Part shown: positions 11,177 to 64,000 of the stretch, piece by piece
How positions within the stretch are numbered: the stretch's first letter is position 1
Layout of the letters: the number at the start of each line of letters is the position of its first letter
Origin: an uncultured Hyphomicrobiales bacterium
Lineage (GTDB): Bacteria; Bacteroidota; Ignavibacteria; Kapaibacteriales; UBA2268
Reading direction: 5' to 3'
Length of the DNA: 64,000 bases
Assembly: GCA_964454975.1 (NCBI GenBank)
Contig: CAYVVD010000008.1
Span: 52,915-116,914 of the forward strand
Translations under genes and position numbers: made by a program
Notes under the pieces: generated by a model
Told to the model about the DNA's origin: nothing
Databases searched by the model: none
The model's input: the letters and a program-made list of their open reading frames with translations, nothing else

Positions 11177-13432
11177 TTAATTCTTAATTATATCCGGTTG
11201 GTGAATGTTCTTGCAGATCTTGCAAATAAGCACTTTCTGGTTGGTTATTATCTGAACATCATTCAGCAGCGTAAGGTAGAGCATGCTCCTGCGCATATTA
11301 GCCTGGTTTTTCTTAACTCTGATTAGCTGGTTTTTCTTAAATTTCAGCACCATCTTATTCATTTCACTGTTGAGCTCATCCAGCGTTTCAAGAAGGTGAT
11401 ATTCTTTTTCCGAAATTATCTTGTGGATGGAATCATCAATGTAATTATATTTTTCAGCGATTTGATGAATTTCTTCAAGTTGATATTTGATGAATGGCTC
11501 GTGACTGTTATCAAAGTAATTGAAAGTCATGCTTGACATATTGATCATCCGATCCGATAATTCGGTTATGTACGCAAGCGAGCGGATATACTGCTGTCTT
11601 TCTTCGATTTCGTTTTCGTGAACAAGCTGCAAGAATTTCAGAATTTCTGAGCAGAGAATGTTTCCTTCAATGTTTATCTTATCTGCCCTTTTACTTGCAG
11701 TTTTCAACTTTTTATAATCCTTTTTTTCAATACCTGAAAATACTTTCCTTACTGTCTTGGAAGAGTTCATTACATAGCTAAGCATATCCTCGCAAATCAT
11801 ATCGAGTTTTGACTGTAGTAACTTTTCCTGTCTTTGAATCATCTTATCTTTTTCATTGAACTCTTTTTCGCGTCCCTTGTGTACTACAGCAGTTCGGTAA
11901 AGTGTAATTGCAGCAAGTGCAACAAAACCTCCTAACGTCCATGCCCCGCCATAGTAGAGAAGCAAAGCGATTGTACCGGCGACCATCGAAGCTGAAAGTG
12001 CCGTGAAGAACCATCCGCCGATAACGGTAATAACACCGGATACCCTGTAAACAGCGCTTTCCCTACCCCAGGCTTTGTCAGGAAGGGCTGCAGCCATAGC
12101 CACAATAAATGTGACATAAGTTGTGGATAGTGGCAACTTGGCAAATGTAGCAAGCGAAATCAATCCTGCGGAAACCATTAGAATTACTGCTGCTCGGAGA
12201 AGGTCGAATGCCGGTGCATCATTGTCCTTTGTTTCTTCCGGCTGGTATTTGGAACTGTCGAACCTTTCTTGAAAAACACGTTGAATAAAGAGGGGAGTTA
12301 TCTTTTTAACGAAAGTAAAGAAAATTAATACTATCCTTACAATTGCCCTTGCTAAAACATTAGAATCAAATCTTTCATATCCCTCATTCTGCCGGCTGAG
12401 GCGGATTGTTGTAAGCGCAACTCCATGAGCCTTTTTCGAAAAGAAAAGCGTAGAAACCATCACAAGCCCGGCAATTAGCAGCATCCATGTTTCAGCCATA
12501 ACGGGTGTATTTAGCACACTCATGTCGGCTGATGCGGGGTTTGGAGTTGAATAGGCATACTGGTAAGCATGCAGGCCGGCTAACGGCGCACCGATAAAGT
12601 TAACCAGGTCGTTTGCAGCAAATGCCAGGGCAAGGGAGAATGTTCCGAATAAAACGATTATCTTCAGGACATTGATTTTTGTGAACATTATCAGCAACTG
12701 AAGAATGATAGTCCACAAAACAAAGCTTGCCGTCAGGATATAAATTGTGTTTTGCTTAATCGTATCGGCAAGCTCGGGTGTCATAAATGATGCGCCTTTA
12801 ATTCCTTTCAGCATAATGAAGAATGTAAGGCATGTTAGGGCAAGCCCTGCCCAAATTGAACCAAATTTTCTAAATTTTTCCTTGTATCCAAATGTAAACA
12901 GGAAGCGCGTGAGGTACTGAAAGAAAGCACCGGCAATAAACGCGATAACAATAGAAAATAAAATTGCAGAAACAATCTCAAGGACTTTATCAGAATTCAG
13001 GTACATAATTGCATCGCCAAGGTTCATACCCTTTTCAAGCACTTTGATTACTGACAATGCAAGTGAACTACCTAACAAACCAAAAATAACAGACACAGTT
13101 GTTGAGGTAGGAAGGCCAAATGTATTGAAAAGATCGAGAAGAAAGATATCTTGGAACATCACGGCAACGAATATTATCAACAGCTCGCCAACAATGAAAA
13201 ACTGCGGATTGAAAATACCCGAACGCGCGATTTCCATCATACCGCCTGAAAGTGTCACACCAACCAAAACACCAATCGCTGCTACAAGGAGAATTATCCT
13301 GAATGGGGCTGCCTTTGAACCAATTGCGGAATTTAAAAAGTTAACAGCGTCATTTGCCACACCAACTGTGAGGTCAACGATTGCAAGAACAATCAGCACA
13401 ATGACAATAATTAGATTAATATCCACAGGCAT
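11177..13432 (-). CDS. Inorganic phosphate transporter, PiT family, long form with a C-terminal PhoU-like domain
   Basis: 751-aa ORF. It has the PHO4 signature GANDAVNF twice, multiple TM segments, and a C-terminal helical PhoU-like region. Confidence 0.88.
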   Translation of the reverse strand: MPVDINLIIVIVLIVLAIVDLTVGVANDAVNFLNSAIGSKAAPFRIILLVAAIGVLVGVTLSGGMMEIARSGIFNPQFFIVGELLIIFVAVMFQDIFLLDLFNTFGLPTSTTVSVIFGLLGSSLALSVIKVLEKGMNLGDAIMYLNSDKVLEIVSAILFSIVIAFIAGAFFQYLTRFLFTFGYKEKFRKFGSIWAGLALTCLTFFIMLKGIKGASFMTPELADTIKQNTIYILTASFVLWTIILQLLIMFTKINVLKIIVLFGTFSLALAFAANDLVNFIGAPLAGLHAYQYAYSTPNPASADMSVLNTPVMAETWMLLIAGLVMVSTLFFSKKAHGVALTTIRLSRQNEGYERFDSNVLARAIVRIVLIFFTFVKKITPLFIQRVFQERFDSSKYQPEETKDNDAPAFDLLRAAVILMVSAGLISLATFAKLPLSTTYVTFIVAMAAALPDKAWGRESAVYRVSGVITVIGGWFFTALSASMVAGTIALLLYYGGAWTLGGFVALAAITLYRTAVVHKGREKEFNEKDKMIQRQEKLLQSKLDMICEDMLSYVMNSSKTVRKVFSGIEKKDYKKLKTASKRADKINIEGNILCSEILKFLQLVHENEIEERQQYIRSLAYITELSDRMINMSSMTFNYFDNSHEPFIKYQLEEIHQIAEKYNYIDDSIHKIISEKEYHLLETLDELNSEMNKMVLKFKKNQLIRVKKNQANMRRSMLYLTLLNDVQIITNQKVLICKICKNIHQPDIIKN

Positions 13433-19427: not shown

Positions 19428-20678
19428 ATGAGAAACGTTCTCGTAATTGCATATTATTTCCCGCCAATGGGGCTAAGCGGAGTCCAGAGGACACTCAAGT
19501 TTGTCAAATACCTTCCGGAGCACGGCTGGAATCCAATAGTCCTTACTTACACTCCTTCTATGTACTATGCCTTCGATGAATCACTCGAAAGCGAGCTGGG
19601 TGAAACAATTATTTACCGTACCGAACCCGAAAAAAAAAATAAGCAGGACAAAAAAACTGTAAAATATCCCTCGCGCCTCGCAGATAAGTTGCGAAAGATA
19701 ATTGTCCAGACTCTGATGCAGCCTGACAGCAAAGTTGGATGGAAAAAATATGCACTGAAAAAAGCTGAAGAAATTTATAAGGAGCATAAGGTTGATGTGG
19801 TTTTCACAACAGCCCCGCCATTTACAGATTTCCTTATTGCGCGGGAATTAAACAAGCGTTATGGAACTCCTTTCCTTGCTGATTACCGCGATTTGTGGGT
19901 TGATAATGCTTATTATTATTACTCAACTCCATTCCACAGGATGTATAGCATGGGGCTGGAACGCGATATACTTAACTCCGCCGGTAAAGTTGTGGTGATC
20001 TCGAGGGATATGAAAGAAAAGCTGCTGCAGCGCTACAAACTGATTTCGCATAACGATATTACAATAATACCGCATGGTTACGACAGCAGCGACTTCGAGA
20101 ATGTGGATTTTGTTAAAGACGACACTAAATTCACGATTACTCATACAGGGCTGTTCCCCGATGATTTAACACCCAGGTATTTCCTGAAAGCATTGTCGAG
20201 ATTTTTTGCGAATAATCCGAAAGCAAAGAAAGAGACAGAGCTGCGCCTTGTTGGCCTGATGAAGAAAGAGCATCTGAACCTGCTGAAAAAATATAAATTG
20301 GACGAGATAACAAAAACACCCGGTTACGTAAATCACTCCGAATCGGTAAAGAATTTACTCGAGTCTGATTTATTATGGATGATGATTCCAAACAAATTAG
20401 TTACGCCGGGCAGGCTTTTTGAATATATAGGCGCCGATAAGCCCATTTTGCTGAATGCACCTGAAGGCAGCATGCGGAAATTGGCAACAGATACAAAAGC
20501 TGCAATTGTCTCTGATGTAAAGGATATTGGCTCAATAGAGAAAGCAATAGCTTCGTTTTACAAGCTGTGGAAAAGCGGAAGTCTGCCAAAACCTTCCCGG
20601 GAATATACAGCCAATTTTGACAGACGCTACTTAGCAGGCGAACTTGCTCGTGAATTATCCCTGATTGCTGAAATATAG
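19428..20678 (+). CDS. GT-B fold glycosyltransferase (GT4-like)
   Basis: 416-aa ORF with the N-terminal YYFPP GT4-like motif and a C-terminal nucleotide-sugar-binding region. Confidence 0.65.
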   Translation: MRNVLVIAYYFPPMGLSGVQRTLKFVKYLPEHGWNPIVLTYTPSMYYAFDESLESELGETIIYRTEPEKKNKQDKKTVKYPSRLADKLRKIIVQTLMQPDSKVGWKKYALKKAEEIYKEHKVDVVFTTAPPFTDFLIARELNKRYGTPFLADYRDLWVDNAYYYYSTPFHRMYSMGLERDILNSAGKVVVISRDMKEKLLQRYKLISHNDITIIPHGYDSSDFENVDFVKDDTKFTITHTGLFPDDLTPRYFLKALSRFFANNPKAKKETELRLVGLMKKEHLNLLKKYKLDEITKTPGYVNHSESVKNLLESDLLWMMIPNKLVTPGRLFEYIGADKPILLNAPEGSMRKLATDTKAAIVSDVKDIGSIEKAIASFYKLWKSGSLPKPSREYTANFDRRYLAGELARELSLIAEI

Positions 20679-21794: not shown

Positions 21795-22139
21795 ATGAAA
21801 AAATACTTAGCATTATTGTTTCTGGGAGTAATCGTAACCTTTGCTGTTACGGCACAATCAGGTGCTGATGCAACAGGTTATGTTGCCAACCTGAATGACA
21901 TTGTTACAAGCAAAGATGGCAGAGTGGACAAATCACAGGCAGTTAGTCTTGTTAAAGCGGGTCATCCGCTTGTACTGGTATCCAACAACAAAGTTTACTT
22001 TGTGTTTAACACAGACGGCAGCTATGCCGGCAAAAACCTTGCCCGTAATGCTTCATTGGATTCAGAAGTTGGGATTGTAGGCAAAATAAAAAGCAAAGGC
22101 GGTTTCAACTACATAATTGCAGATAAGTTTATTCAATAA
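21795..22139 (+). CDS. Small secreted protein, paralog A (YNTDGSYAGKNLAR domain)
   Basis: 114-aa ORF with a signal peptide. It shares an ~85-aa domain with the adjacent ORF. Confidence 0.6.
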   Translation: MKKYLALLFLGVIVTFAVTAQSGADATGYVANLNDIVTSKDGRVDKSQAVSLVKAGHPLVLVSNNKVYFVFNTDGSYAGKNLARNASLDSEVGIVGKIKSKGGFNYIIADKFIQ

Positions 22140-22153
22140 CACAGGAAATTAAA

Positions 22154-22690
22154 ATGAATAAAATAGTTTTATCATTCTTTGTTGTTTTGCTTGCGTTTGC
22201 AATTGTTAGTTGCGGCGGCGAGAAGAAAGAAGAACCTGCCGGTGACACTTCTATGGAGCAGATGGATACACAAGAACCTGAAACAATGGAAGAGCAGGCG
22301 CCTGATACCGCTGATATTGGCGATATTCAGGATGAAGAGGTGCAAAAAGAAGAAATGAAAGAGGAGAAAAAGGAATCCCCAAAAGAAGAAAAGAAGGCAA
22401 TGGCGGATCCAAATGTACCTATTGAAGGTACAGTAGTAAGCCTTTATGGGTTGGTTACATCCGGTAAAATGGAAGTGAATAAGGCAGAAGCTATTGACCT
22501 TGTCAACCGCGACCAATTGCTTGGATTTAAAGATTCAAAAGGAACTATCTGGATTGTTTACAATACAGATGGAAGTTACGCAGGTAAAAACCTGGCTCGC
22601 CATGCTGACGGCAAGCTTGGAATCAAGGGAAAGAAGCGCAACATTAAAGGCGCAAATATCCTCATCGCCGATGAAATGATCCCGATGTAA
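22154..22690 (+). CDS. Small lipoprotein, paralog B with an acidic E/K-rich linker
   Basis: Lipobox (VSCGG), then a low-complexity acidic stretch, then a C-terminal domain homologous to the preceding ORF (IVYNTDGSYAGKNLARHADG). Confidence 0.6.
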   Translation: MNKIVLSFFVVLLAFAIVSCGGEKKEEPAGDTSMEQMDTQEPETMEEQAPDTADIGDIQDEEVQKEEMKEEKKESPKEEKKAMADPNVPIEGTVVSLYGLVTSGKMEVNKAEAIDLVNRDQLLGFKDSKGTIWIVYNTDGSYAGKNLARHADGKLGIKGKKRNIKGANILIADEMIPM

Positions 22691-22744
22691 ACTTGCTTGT
22701 AATTTCGATTTAAAAAGGTTGCTCAACAGGGCAGCCTTTTTCTT

Positions 22745-23760
22745 TTATGTTACAGCCTGTTTTTTAGTCACAGGGAAGAATTCGTTAAGAGTACCCGACT
22801 TGATATTTACGTAATACATCCCCTTTGCTAATCCAACCATGTATAACGGTGCCCGGTCTTTCCCGGAATCTACATTAAATGCCTTCTTCTTTCTGCCGGT
22901 TACATCAATTATTTCGATTGAGGCGTTCTCAAAAACAAGCCCTTTCAGCTCTACTAACATTAAATCATCAACTGGATTAGGAAAAGCTGTGGCAATTGAA
23001 CTAATGCCCGGCACAGGAATGCCTGTATCTGTTGCTGTGTCAAGAGGGAAAGCGAATATATTAAATGAATGTTCTTTTACACTCAGGTTCAGCGAGAGCA
23101 TAACAACTTCTTCTGTTGGCAGGCAGGCGCAGGGGGTTTCTGGAGTGTTTTTAATCCAGTAGTACTCGTTATAACAGGAGTAATGCCGCCCCGGTTCAAC
23201 CTTGAATTTGTAATCAGAGTTGATTGTAATATCAAACACATTTTCCGGGTCGCGCTTGACAATTGAGATAAATAATGTATCGTCAGTTTTAGTAGTTGTA
23301 ACATCAATGCATGGAACCCCAACAAACTCCCAAAGTCCTTGATAGGCTTTTTGGTTATAAGTTTCGCAAAAAAAAAGATTGTCAACCAATTCGTTGCCGG
23401 TATGATTTGCTGTCAGATCCATCATGGAAAAAAACCAGGTGTGCCATACATCATTCGCTTAGCATTTTCAAGAATACCGACATTAATACTGCCAATGTGC
23501 GATGTCCTTACAGCATATATCATGGTTTTGGCATTTTTTATCATAGCATTCTGGACAGTTCCTGTTCCAAGTCCGCTGATAAGATCCCGGTTATTGGATT
23601 CAGCATCTTCGCCGCAGGGAGTAGAATCTGAAAAGCATCCTGTTTAATTCAAATCCGGTTTCCCAGGATTTTTCAATCCTAACAGGTGCCTTGTTTTTTC
23701 TGAAAAAATGTGGTTAAGAGATAAAAATAAAAGGAATGTTACGACTTTTGAAATGTTCAT
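22745..23760 (-). pseudogene. Disrupted T9SS cargo protein gene. Signal peptide and body are separated by an in-frame TAA at 23644-23646. A frameshift at the A7 tract (23427-23433) follows, upstream of the 226-aa ORF that carries a type-A T9SS C-terminal sorting domain.
   Basis: I translated the minus strand by hand. MNISKVVTFLLFLSLNHIFS... is a Sec signal peptide, and it ends at a TAA. The same frame then stays open for a further ~70 codons and terminates at TGA in an ATGA overlap with the MMDL... ORF. That ORF (22745-23425) ends with the CTD motifs FPNPVDD...IIDVTGRKK...GMYYVNIKSG...KK. One extra A/T in the homopolymer would fuse the two frames. Confidence 0.5.
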
Positions 23761-23848
23761 TATTGTTACTTTTAAAAATAAAAACTATAGTAAATATAAA
23801 TAATAATTCTATAAACATAATTTACAAATCTTTTAATATGTTTGTAGT

Positions 23849-24541
23849 ATGAAACTGGTGATATTTGATATTGACGGAACACTCCTGAATTCGGTAGAAG
23901 CAGACGACAAATGCTTCCGGCTGGCATTCAGGGATGTGTTTCATATTGACCTTGCACACCTGGACTGGGAGTACTTCAAATCTATTACCAGCGGCACCGA
24001 CGAAGGAATGGCAGTAGAGATTTTCCGCCATTACTTCGGGCGTACTCCTTCGCTGGAAGAAATGGAAAAGTTTAAGTGGTATTTTCATAAGCTGCTTAAT
24101 GGCAATTTCCATCAATATCCGGGTTCGTTCGAGGAAATTCCCGGAGCAGCTGAATTTTTCAGAATCTTATATGAAGATAAGGACATTGGTGTTGCTATAT
24201 CTACCGGTAGCTGGAGGGATTCGGCTATATTAAAGCTTGCAGCTCTCGGAATAAAACACAGGGGAATTCCACTTGCTACTTCCGATGATGATGAATACCG
24301 CACTTTTATAATCAAAAAAGCAATTTCAGAATCACAGAATGCATACAGCAAAACATCCTTTGAATCTATAATTTACTTCGGGGATGGCCTGTGGGACCTG
24401 AAAGCAGCTACTGAAGCAGATACTAAGTTTATTGGAGTTGATTACAAGAGGAAGGGCACATTCAGCGGAAAGGATGTAAAGGATGTTATTGAGAACTACA
24501 AAAAACCTGAAAATATCCTTGGCAAATTAGCCCTTATGTAA
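23849..24541 (+). CDS. HAD-superfamily hydrolase (phosphatase-like)
   Basis: Begins with the HAD motif I (FDIDGTL). 230 aa. Confidence 0.8.
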   Translation: MKLVIFDIDGTLLNSVEADDKCFRLAFRDVFHIDLAHLDWEYFKSITSGTDEGMAVEIFRHYFGRTPSLEEMEKFKWYFHKLLNGNFHQYPGSFEEIPGAAEFFRILYEDKDIGVAISTGSWRDSAILKLAALGIKHRGIPLATSDDDEYRTFIIKKAISESQNAYSKTSFESIIYFGDGLWDLKAATEADTKFIGVDYKRKGTFSGKDVKDVIENYKKPENILGKLALM

Positions 24542-54353: not shown

Positions 54354-54734
54354 ATGAAGAAGTTCTACAAAATACTACCGGCATTTATATTGCTTATTTT
54401 CACCTTAGCTTCGTGTGAGAGTGTTGTTTATATACCCTCCGGAGAAATACCTGCCAATCTTAGCTATAGTGAAGATGTATTAGCAATTTTTAACAGGAGC
54501 TGTAATAGAGGAGGCTGCCATAATTCGGGGGGGGTGCCACCGGATCTGTCGCCTCAAAATGGATATAACTATATGGTTTATGGTGGTATGATTGATACTG
54601 CCAACCCGGAAAACAGTTTAATATATCTAAGTATGAACGATCTAAAAAATCCGATGCCTCCGGAAGGATTACTTTCGGTTTACGAGAGAAGTATTGTCCT
54701 GGGATGGATCCAACAAGGAGCAAATAATAATTAA
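54354..54734 (+). CDS. Small lipoprotein with a PSCyt1-like (Planctomycete-type cytochrome c-like) domain and an atypical CNRGGCH (Cx4CH) motif
   Basis: Lipobox (LASC). The C-terminal MPP...WIQQGA region matches the PSCyt1 tail. The canonical CxxCH is replaced by Cx4CH. Confidence 0.5.
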   Translation: MKKFYKILPAFILLIFTLASCESVVYIPSGEIPANLSYSEDVLAIFNRSCNRGGCHNSGGVPPDLSPQNGYNYMVYGGMIDTANPENSLIYLSMNDLKNPMPPEGLLSVYERSIVLGWIQQGANNN

Positions 54735-59321: not shown

Positions 59322-60395
59322 ATGGCGCAAAAAGCGATGGTTATAAATTTACACAACTGCGTTGGTTGTGGTGCTTGCGGAATTGGATGCAAGGTAGAAA
59401 ATAATACCCAAATAAGCAATGATAAAACAACTTTTAATTGGGCTGATTTCCATGTGATGAACAAGGGTACTTTTCCCGATATAAAATACACTAATTATCC
59501 GGTACTTTGTAACCACTGTTCAGATGCACCTTGTGTTGATGCTTGCCCTTTGGAAGAAAAAGCCATTTTTAAGACCGCGGATGGTTTAACTATGACCAAT
59601 GAAGAGAGATGCATTGGATGTCAATCATGCATAGTAGCATGTCCGTACAGTTCAAGAGATGTTAAGAATGATGATGTTCAATATTCCATTATAAGCTTTA
59701 ATGAACCCGATGAAAAAACACATGATTATTGGGGATCATCAATCCCTTTCATCAAAAATGGTTCATCTAATCCGAAAGAAGTGGCTCAACTGACACAGAA
59801 TAAGCCTCCTTATGCAAACGATTATGAACATGAGGATTACAATGCTATAAGAAAATCGGGTGTAATAGAGAAATGTATATTTTGCGAACATCGCACCAGG
59901 AAAGGTGAACTACCGTATTGTGTGGTTGTATGCCCTTGCAATGCAAGGATTTTTGGTGATATAGATGATCCGGAAAGTGAAGTTAGTAAATTGCTGGCAA
60001 AGTATGAAGCCAAAACCTTTAAAAATAACAAAGGTGAGTTCCTTGCGAAGAACGAAAAAGGTACTCAGCCAAATGTTTACTACATACGCGATAAGGAAAA
60101 CGTAGCAACCAGTATTGTTGAAGAAAAACACATAGAAACGCAGTTTAAAGTGTATCCAAATCCTGCAAGTACGAACTTGAATATTGAAGTTTTTCTTGAA
60201 ACTAGTGATTTCATTTCAATTGATCTATATGATATTTCTGGAAGGGTTGCCTTGAATATTGTAAATAACGAGTTTACCCCTGCAGGAAACATTAAATACA
60301 ATGCGTCGCTTAATAATCTGCAATCAGGTACTTATATTTGCAGAGTACAAGTTAAAAATGTTTCTCAGGCGCAGACTGTAATTGTTACTCGATAA
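59322..60395 (+). CDS. 4x[4Fe-4S] ferredoxin-type electron-transfer subunit (PsrB/DmsB/NrfC-like) fused to a C-terminal T9SS sorting domain (CTD)
   Basis: Four Cys clusters (CVGCGACGIGC; CNHCSDAPCVDACP; CIGCQSCIVACP; CIFCEH...CVVVCPC). There is no signal peptide. The last ~84 aa (from 60141) are a type-A T9SS CTD: KVYPNPAS, IDLYDISGRVA, LQSGTYICRVQVKNVSQAQTVIV. Confidence 0.85.
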   Translation: MAQKAMVINLHNCVGCGACGIGCKVENNTQISNDKTTFNWADFHVMNKGTFPDIKYTNYPVLCNHCSDAPCVDACPLEEKAIFKTADGLTMTNEERCIGCQSCIVACPYSSRDVKNDDVQYSIISFNEPDEKTHDYWGSSIPFIKNGSSNPKEVAQLTQNKPPYANDYEHEDYNAIRKSGVIEKCIFCEHRTRKGELPYCVVVCPCNARIFGDIDDPESEVSKLLAKYEAKTFKNNKGEFLAKNEKGTQPNVYYIRDKENVATSIVEEKHIETQFKVYPNPASTNLNIEVFLETSDFISIDLYDISGRVALNIVNNEFTPAGNIKYNASLNNLQSGTYICRVQVKNVSQAQTVIVTR

Positions 60396-63220: not shown

Positions 63221-64000
63221 AAAAATACAACAAATAATCAGCCATACTAAATCTTCGCACACAGTTGAGGAAAAAACTTTAAAGGATATTACCGGCCATG
63301 TGCTTCAACAAGATATTGTCTCTGATATGGATATGCCCCCGTTCGACAAATCAGCCATGGATGGCTATGCATGCTGTAAACAGGATATAGCGAATCCTCT
63401 TAAATTAATAGAAGTGATAGCAGCAGGAAGTGTTCCCGTAAATGAGATAAAAGAAAACCAGTGCTCTAAGATTATGACCGGAGCCAAAGTACCAATCGGG
63501 GCCGATTGTGTTTTTATGGTGGAAGATGCTGAAAAAATCGATGAAAATACCGTTCGTTGCATCAACCTAAAAACCAAAACCAACATTTGTTACCGGGGCG
63601 AAGATTGCAAAAACGGCGATATTTTGCTGCAAAAAGGCCGGATTATAAAATCCGAACATTTGCCAATTATGGCATCGGCAGGATACACCCGGGTAAAAGT
63701 AAGTCGAATGCCGACCATTGGATTGATTGTTACAGGCTCCGAACTGGTTGAACCGGATCAAAAGCCCGACAATGGGAAAATACGCAATTCCAATGCGATT
63801 CAAATATCAGCATTATGCAAAAAAATGAACCTTGAAGTTAAATATTACGGAATAGTTGTTGACGATATCAAGCAACTGAGTACGGTGTTTAATATGGCAA
63901 TGAATGAAACCGATGTGATCATGATTACCGGGGGGGCATCTATGGGCGATTATGACCTTGTACCGGAATTGTTGTCAGTTTCGGGGTTTGAAATAATTTG
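63207..64000 (+). CDS. moeA: Molybdopterin molybdenumtransferase MoeA (5' part; the gene runs off the window)
   Basis: My own translation from the ATG at 63207 stays open to the window end. It contains the MoeA hallmark PPFDKSAMDGYA and MTGAKVP. Confidence 0.8.
   Translation, partial: MEAFEKIQQIISHTKSSHTVEEKTLKDITGHVLQQDIVSDMDMPPFDKSAMDGYACCKQDIANPLKLIEVIAAGSVPVNEIKENQCSKIMTGAKVPIGADCVFMVEDAEKIDENTVRCINLKTKTNICYRGEDCKNGDILLQKGRIIKSEHLPIMASAGYTRVKVSRMPTIGLIVTGSELVEPDQKPDNGKIRNSNAIQISALCKKMNLEVKYYGIVVDDIKQLSTVFNMAMNETDVIMITGGASMGDYDLVPELLSVSGFEII

Follow-up and report, generated by a model that had tools for sequence, protein, structure and literature searches.

Reading frames, lesions and neighbours of the locus

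The locus lies on the minus strand at positions 22745–23760 of the window, by which we mean the whole 64-kb stretch of DNA that was analysed, and consists of two reading frames that meet at a homopolymer. Direct reading gives an ATG at 23760, which opens MNISKVVTFLLFLSLNHIFSEKTRHLLGLKNPGKPDLN, and an in-frame TAA at 23644–23646, both as claimed in the original prediction. Beyond the TAA a further 73 codons, 23643–23425, are open in that frame (frame A), where some 70 had been claimed, and the stretch ends in a TGA (23424–23422). This stop overlaps the ATG (23425–23423) of the annotated 226-aa ORF (22745–23425, frame B) in the form ATGA, again as predicted. The homopolymer that had been placed at the frame junction is indeed a run of seven A, and only its coordinates had to be moved by one position, from 23427–23433 to 23428–23434 on the plus strand. 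One extra T on the coding strand fuses the frames as ...YGTPGFFSMMDLTANHTG... into a reading of 338 codons, in accordance with the proposal. The features of the locus are as follows.

23647–23760, minus strand: signal-peptide-like opening of 38 codons (MNISKVVTFLLFLSLNHIFS...), from direct reading; GC 31.6%, codon log-odds 0.176
23644–23646, minus strand: in-frame nonsense codon TAA, upstream of the part with demonstrable homology
23431–23610, minus strand: frame-A segment with the last elements of the GH51 (beta/alpha)8 barrel; profile positions 467–526
23428–23434, minus strand: A7 run (T7 on the coding strand), site of a −1 frameshift relative to the ancestral frame; T8 brings colinearity back
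23422–23425, minus strand: ATGA overlap of the frame-A stop TGA and the first ATG of the 226-aa ORF, from direct reading
22985–23421, minus strand: end of barrel helix 8, GH51 C-terminal beta-sandwich and linker, within the 226-aa ORF; profile positions 529 to ~670, and Foldseek
22790–22984, minus strand: T9SS type A C-terminal sorting domain (CTD); PF18962 E=1.5e-7, TIGR04183 E=2.2e-7
22712–22741, no strand assigned: terminator-like hairpin between the convergent 178-aa ORF and the locus, with A/T runs on both sides

The open stretch after the TAA had been called improbable for non-coding DNA, which agrees with a P of ~0.01 for 73 open codons at the local base composition. Its codon-usage log-odds of 0.225 is close to that of the true genes of the window (0.25 ± 0.09) and far from that of wrong frames (−0.57 ± 0.34), and the 226-aa ORF is likewise gene-like, with a value of 0.26. 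The ORF also contains a run of nine A at 23368–23376 (T9 on the coding strand, AAT CTT TTT TTT TGC), which is in frame and colinear with the homologues described below. Scans of 22400–24200 for Rfam families, repeats, and promoters or terminators gave nothing above chance. The hairpin at 22712–22741 is no exception, since one such site was found and shuffled sequences have a mean of 0.9.

The neighbouring genes encode NeuB, a HAD protein, an aminotransferase, an SDR protein, a GT4 glycosyltransferase and an fn3 lipoprotein; together they make up a cluster for surface polysaccharide and not a locus for glycan utilisation. The GT4 glycosyltransferase ORF (19428–20678, plus strand) has an A10 run at 19630–19639 and an A7 run at 19650–19656, 10 nt apart and both in frame, and its long homopolymer is a better candidate for phase variation than the A7 run at 23428–23434. 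Two adjacent ORFs of 114 and 178 aa (21795–22139 and 22154–22690) have secretion- or lipoprotein-type N-termini and a C-terminal motif in common (NTDGSYAGKNLAR...), without a Pfam match, and look like a tandem pair of paralogues from a family not yet described. Further along the window, a 357-aa ORF (59322–60395, plus strand) ends in a T9SS CTD, and the CTDs of several of the homologues match 60012–60392 in tblastn; T9SS cargo genes are thus present elsewhere in the genome. Two runs of G, G8 at 54527–54534 and G7 at 63930–63936, lie outside ORFs of at least 150 aa and are unusual at 41% GC; they could be promoter-proximal tracts. An ORF of 751 aa at 11177–13432, considered as a possible full-length paralogue, turned out to be unrelated.

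Homology across the frame junction

Homologues were collected with HMMER, run exhaustively against 1.84 billion representatives; the query was the post-TAA frame-A peptide joined to the ORF, with the CTD left out. The search returned 74 homologues, each of which forms a single alignment spanning the junction (query 13–201) and corresponding to residues ~470–660 of proteins of ~750 aa; identity is 25–34% over the shared ~190–280 residues. When the homologues were compared with the window by tblastn, two linked HSPs were obtained, frame A at 23607–23437 and frame B at 23431–22763, which meet inside the T run. At the residue level ...KRMMYGTPGFF/SMMDLTANHTG, where the slash marks the junction, aligns without gaps to the homologue sequence KRIIYGTPSFYAMAMLRKHYG.

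A family profile of 748 positions, built from 51 full-length homologues, matched the fused reading with one added T at E=1.5e-60, and the match covers only profile positions 468–747. Taken separately, frame A matched positions 467–526 (33.4 bits) and the 226-aa ORF positions 529–747 (146 bits), so the two frames abut. Because the homologues are colinear through the junction and both frames abut on the profile, the A7/T7 run holds a true frameshift with respect to the ancestral frame. By these alignments, the two frames are parts of one formerly continuous protein segment with the A7/T7 run as the frame junction, in line with the prediction that both stem from one gene. Orthologues starting at the MMDL methionine, which had been named as grounds for refuting it, were not found: no homologue starts there, the homology extending upstream of this point. 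One presumption of the prediction could not be upheld, that of an intact gene of ~338 aa, since all complete homologues are GH51 enzymes of ~750 aa.

The complete homologues (~740–790 aa) contain the domains ASD1_dom, Alpha-L-AF_C and Por_Secre_tail, and are labelled in their sources either "alpha-N-arabinofuranosidase" or "T9SS type A sorting domain-containing protein". Their profile matches crystal structures of GH51 alpha-L-arabinofuranosidases (3s2c, E=6e-79; 1pz3, E=8e-46), and the acid/base glutamate E349 (motif GNE) and the nucleophile E460 (motif TEW; both in P0003 numbering) are invariant among them. These T9SS-secreted GH51 proteins of uncultured Bacteroidota-like bacteria (P0003, P0004, P0008, P0009 and others) have the same C-terminus as the locus, composed of beta-sandwich, linker and Por_Secre_tail. 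However, they are complete, with a signal peptide, an N-terminal module of ~200 aa and a full barrel carrying GNE and TEW, whereas the locus corresponds to positions 468–747 only.

The existence of a natural short family consisting of sandwich and CTD was also considered and rejected, since both short homologues examined are split or partial full-length genes. One of them, P0035, lies on a 1.4-kb contig where coding continues upstream of the called start. The other, P0005, comes from the Logan SRR27197504 contig (L041), in which a gene of full-length type runs in one frame and is cut by an in-frame TAG at TE*. The TAG, at 732–734 of that contig, falls exactly on the Trp codon of TEW, and gene callers report a "short" protein of 291 aa. 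This contig resembles the locus in being a GH51-CTD gene whose annotated short protein stems from an interruption, but on it the catalytic part, absent at the locus, is still encoded upstream without a change of frame, within the limits of the contig.

Closer relatives were sought in several collections. A word-indexed search of 5.8 billion proteins returned the 226-aa ORF itself as its sole match, and exact look-ups of the proteins of the window found no contig on record. The best non-self matches have 31–34% identity for the GH51 part and 44% for the neighbouring HAD gene. When the HAD neighbour was searched for in 185,579 species genomes and in the protein database, identities did not exceed 44%, and a GH51 gene beside the HAD gene was not found. 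Metagenome contigs were also scanned for the exact sequence pattern around the tract, with 6–10 bases allowed at the tract itself, and gave no matches. In the collections searched there is no relative close enough to show the ancestral locus.

Retained and missing parts of the protein

The last third of the GH51 architecture is recognisable at the locus. The family-profile match (E=1.5e-60) covers the GH51 C-terminal beta-sandwich (Alpha-L-AF_C), for which Foldseek also finds 3ug3 and 3s2c (E ~1e-8); Pfam PF06964 is weak on the fused sequence (E=0.02). Modelled with AF2 (pLDDT 86.6), the fused protein after the TAA has a helix, two strands and a helix, which belong to the end of the barrel, and then the beta-sandwich and the CTD. 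The frame-A segment 23431–23610 would supply the helix, the strands and the start of the last helix (elements H21-36, E53-57, E63-67 and H69-78 of the model), and it is within this last barrel helix that the two frames meet. Foldseek comparison of the model with GH51 structures 3ug3 and 3s2c is limited to the C-terminal ~195 residues (3ug3, of which one third is covered, E=1.7e-8, TM score normalised to the target 0.33), while the CTD of the model matches that of mirolase (8qb1). The T9SS type A CTD claimed earlier was recovered with scores above the curated cutoffs, 32.1 bits against 27 for PF18962 and 30.8 against 23 for TIGR04183.

The retained piece starts in the middle of a domain and not at a domain boundary. 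Outside profile positions 468–747 no match to the GH51 (beta/alpha)8 catalytic barrel was obtained at the locus, and no part of homologue residues 1 to ~465 was found in any frame of the 64-kb window. These two findings, together with the position of the HAD gene 88 nt from the ATG, mean that at least ~415 codons are gone, comprising the N-terminal accessory module and nearly the whole barrel, both catalytic glutamates included. The region of the acid/base glutamate (GNE, strand 4) is absent from the locus, and the (T/D)EW motif of the nucleophile (strand 7) was not found in the 51 codons upstream of the homologous part, where there is no significant match either. The locus thus has in common with GH51 (CAZy family 51; Thermotoga Araf51, 3S2C and 3UG3; Geobacillus stearothermophilus AbfA, 1PZ3) the last barrel elements and the C-terminal beta-sandwich, in both sequence and predicted fold, but, unlike in these enzymes, ~90% of the catalytic barrel is gone, along with the two catalytic glutamates, and a stop and a frameshift break the sequence. 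The locus cannot be an active member of the family.

What has been retained is fairly well conserved. The locus keeps 30 of the 50 columns of the GH51-derived part that are at least 60% conserved, a fraction of 0.60, compared with 0.75 ± 0.09 for the homologues, of which 2 of 39 are as low. Such a low-end value agrees with either a distant lineage or a somewhat relaxed constraint.

The origin of the first 51 codons is less clear-cut. Neither the 38 codons before the TAA nor the 12 after it have significant similarity to anything compared, and for the 38 codons an antisense frame has the same codon log-odds (0.176) as the sense frame. Against shuffled sequences, the first codons gave p ~0.12 for the colinear barrel region; against the N-termini of the homologues, the hydrophobic core alone gave p ~0.03 and the part after the signal peptide p ~0.29. 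Three alternative registers were tried for these 51 codons, namely the colinear barrel at ~425–467, PGKPDLN*TGCFSD against the N-terminal strand kgkispelfGgFiE, and the RYPGG placement of MAFFT; each produced a handful of matching residues, but all were non-significant and were taken as chance. The same was concluded for a marginal profile match (~0 bits) at 23798–23899 in another frame, which overlaps the antisense of the HAD start codons.

The sequence at 23701–23760 resembles a signal peptide, as judged by its appearance, and is cut off from the CTD ORF by the TAA and the frameshift. The CTD-bearing polypeptide itself has no recognisable Sec signal peptide, as the 226-aa ORF starts with MMDLTANHTG and has no hydrophobic leader. 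The 38-codon opening may represent the original gene start, spared by a deletion within the gene, or be AT-rich sequence of another origin. Upstream of the ATG at 23760 lies the divergent HAD gene, with its start at a distance of 88 nt; under a simple 5' truncation this natural spacing between a signal-peptide-like start and a divergent gene would be a coincidence. An internal deletion that kept the native start is slightly favoured over a simple 5' truncation; we infer this from the fact that the remnant is otherwise well conserved and yet the invariant TEW is missing just upstream.

Origin of the locus and alternative explanations

The best explanation, and one that we regard as very likely, is that the locus is a pseudogene, the non-functional rest of a gene for a GH51 alpha-L-arabinofuranosidase secreted by the T9SS. 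The ancestral product would have had ~750 aa and comprised a signal peptide, an N-terminal accessory module, a (beta/alpha)8 catalytic barrel, a beta-sandwich and a T9SS CTD. Three lesions would account for the present state, i.e. a large deletion, the nonsense codon TAA and the −1 frameshift in the T7 run within the last barrel helix, and would have left the last ~60 barrel residues, the beta-sandwich and the CTD. These lesions are presumably mutations and not assembly errors, and they would be evolutionarily recent, since both frames are still open, the codon usage is gene-like and most family-conserved residues are kept. The retained conservation and the open frames would also be expected of a truncated protein on which selection acts, or acted until recently. 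The annotated 226-aa CDS would yield at most a cytoplasmic fragment, and because this product has no signal peptide its CTD cannot reach the T9SS. With the catalytic two-thirds missing, repair of the stop and the frameshift would still give no enzyme. Among the three options offered by the original prediction, a recently inactivated secreted protein comes closest, but the main lesion, the large deletion, had been missed.

Another explanation is that the TAA, the A7 run or both are sequencing or assembly errors, so that the genome would encode an uninterrupted protein of ~338 aa consisting of signal peptide, barrel stub, beta-sandwich and CTD. Errors are notoriously frequent in homopolymers such as the A7 run. 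The addition of one T gives exact colinearity with the homologues, both frames are open with gene-like codon usage, and the only database copy is on a contig of 131,452 nt, which apparently makes it part of a draft or metagenome assembly. However, two independent errors within 220 nt would be needed, and the window is otherwise without homopolymer damage, 87% of it being in ORFs of at least 150 aa. Long homopolymers number 43 in the 64 kb (about one per 1.5 kb), and since 35 of them, including A10 and A9 runs, lie inside intact long ORFs, there is no systematic homopolymer error in the assembly. Furthermore, the corrected gene would still be without a catalytic domain and start in the middle of the barrel, and would thus be a truncated derivative. 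We consider an origin of the lesions in sequencing or assembly unlikely.

It may also be imagined that an old, in-frame internal deletion gave rise to a non-catalytic mini-protein with the native signal peptide, the GH51 beta-sandwich and the T9SS CTD, and that this protein has been maintained at the surface for glycan binding or in a structural role. Slippage on the T7/U7 run, at the level of DNA, RNA or the ribosome, would now gate its expression, and the TAA would be an assembly error. The probability of this scenario seems to us very low.

The position of a homopolymer exactly at the frame junction had led to the suggestion of a slipped-strand, phase-variable switch in which a change between A7 and A8 turns a T9SS surface protein on and off; a second, longer run (A9, 23368–23376) within the same gene would also speak for it. 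The locus is like the homopolymer contingency loci among the surface genes of Neisseria, Haemophilus and Campylobacter in that the frame junction of a surface- or secreted-protein gene coincides with a homopolymer. In contrast to those loci, the tract is short, seven residues being little for a contingency tract, and it is ordinary for this genome, where runs of this kind are mostly found within ordinary genes; the ON frame is disrupted and the gene truncated. The A8 state would still be blocked by the upstream TAA, and its product would be a glycosidase without a catalytic domain. A lengthening of the tract to A8 thus fuses the frames but yields no complete functional ORF, and the homologues are encoded in a single frame, without a tract-linked frame change. 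Phase variation is highly improbable here, and this option of the original prediction is not supported.

The 226-aa ORF might instead be an independent functional gene that starts at MMDL as annotated; it is intact, has gene-like codon usage (0.26) and is a called protein in NCBI-derived data. T9SS CTD proteins require prior Sec export, but this protein would have no signal peptide although the CTD is its only recognisable targeting feature. It would moreover begin in the middle of a barrel helix, at a point where none of the homologues starts and upstream of which the homology continues in the other frame, and we find its independence hardly credible. Least probable of all is that the frames are joined during expression, either by a programmed −1 shift of the ribosome or by transcriptional slippage, on U UUU UUU: frame A reads GG-U UUU UUU-CCA-UGA, a formal match, and no more than that, to the slippery heptamer X XXY YYZ with a 0-frame stop close behind, and a −1 slip would give the exactly colinear product GFFSMMDL, but no downstream stimulatory structure was found (fold of 101 nt, z=+0.42), no homologue here uses a frameshift, the two-frame arrangement is not conserved, and the upstream TAA and missing catalytic domain would make a dedicated device pointless.

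As a remnant of a GH51 arabinofuranosidase gene, the locus is an ordinary decayed gene and calls for no new mechanism. The 226-aa "T9SS sorting-domain protein" annotated at 22745–23425 should be flagged as a GH51 arabinofuranosidase pseudogene fragment, and inventories of the genome should list it neither as T9SS cargo nor as a CAZyme. There is also a more general trap here: a frameshift and a stop that look repairable may mask a far larger loss, which is exposed only by comparison with full-length homologues.
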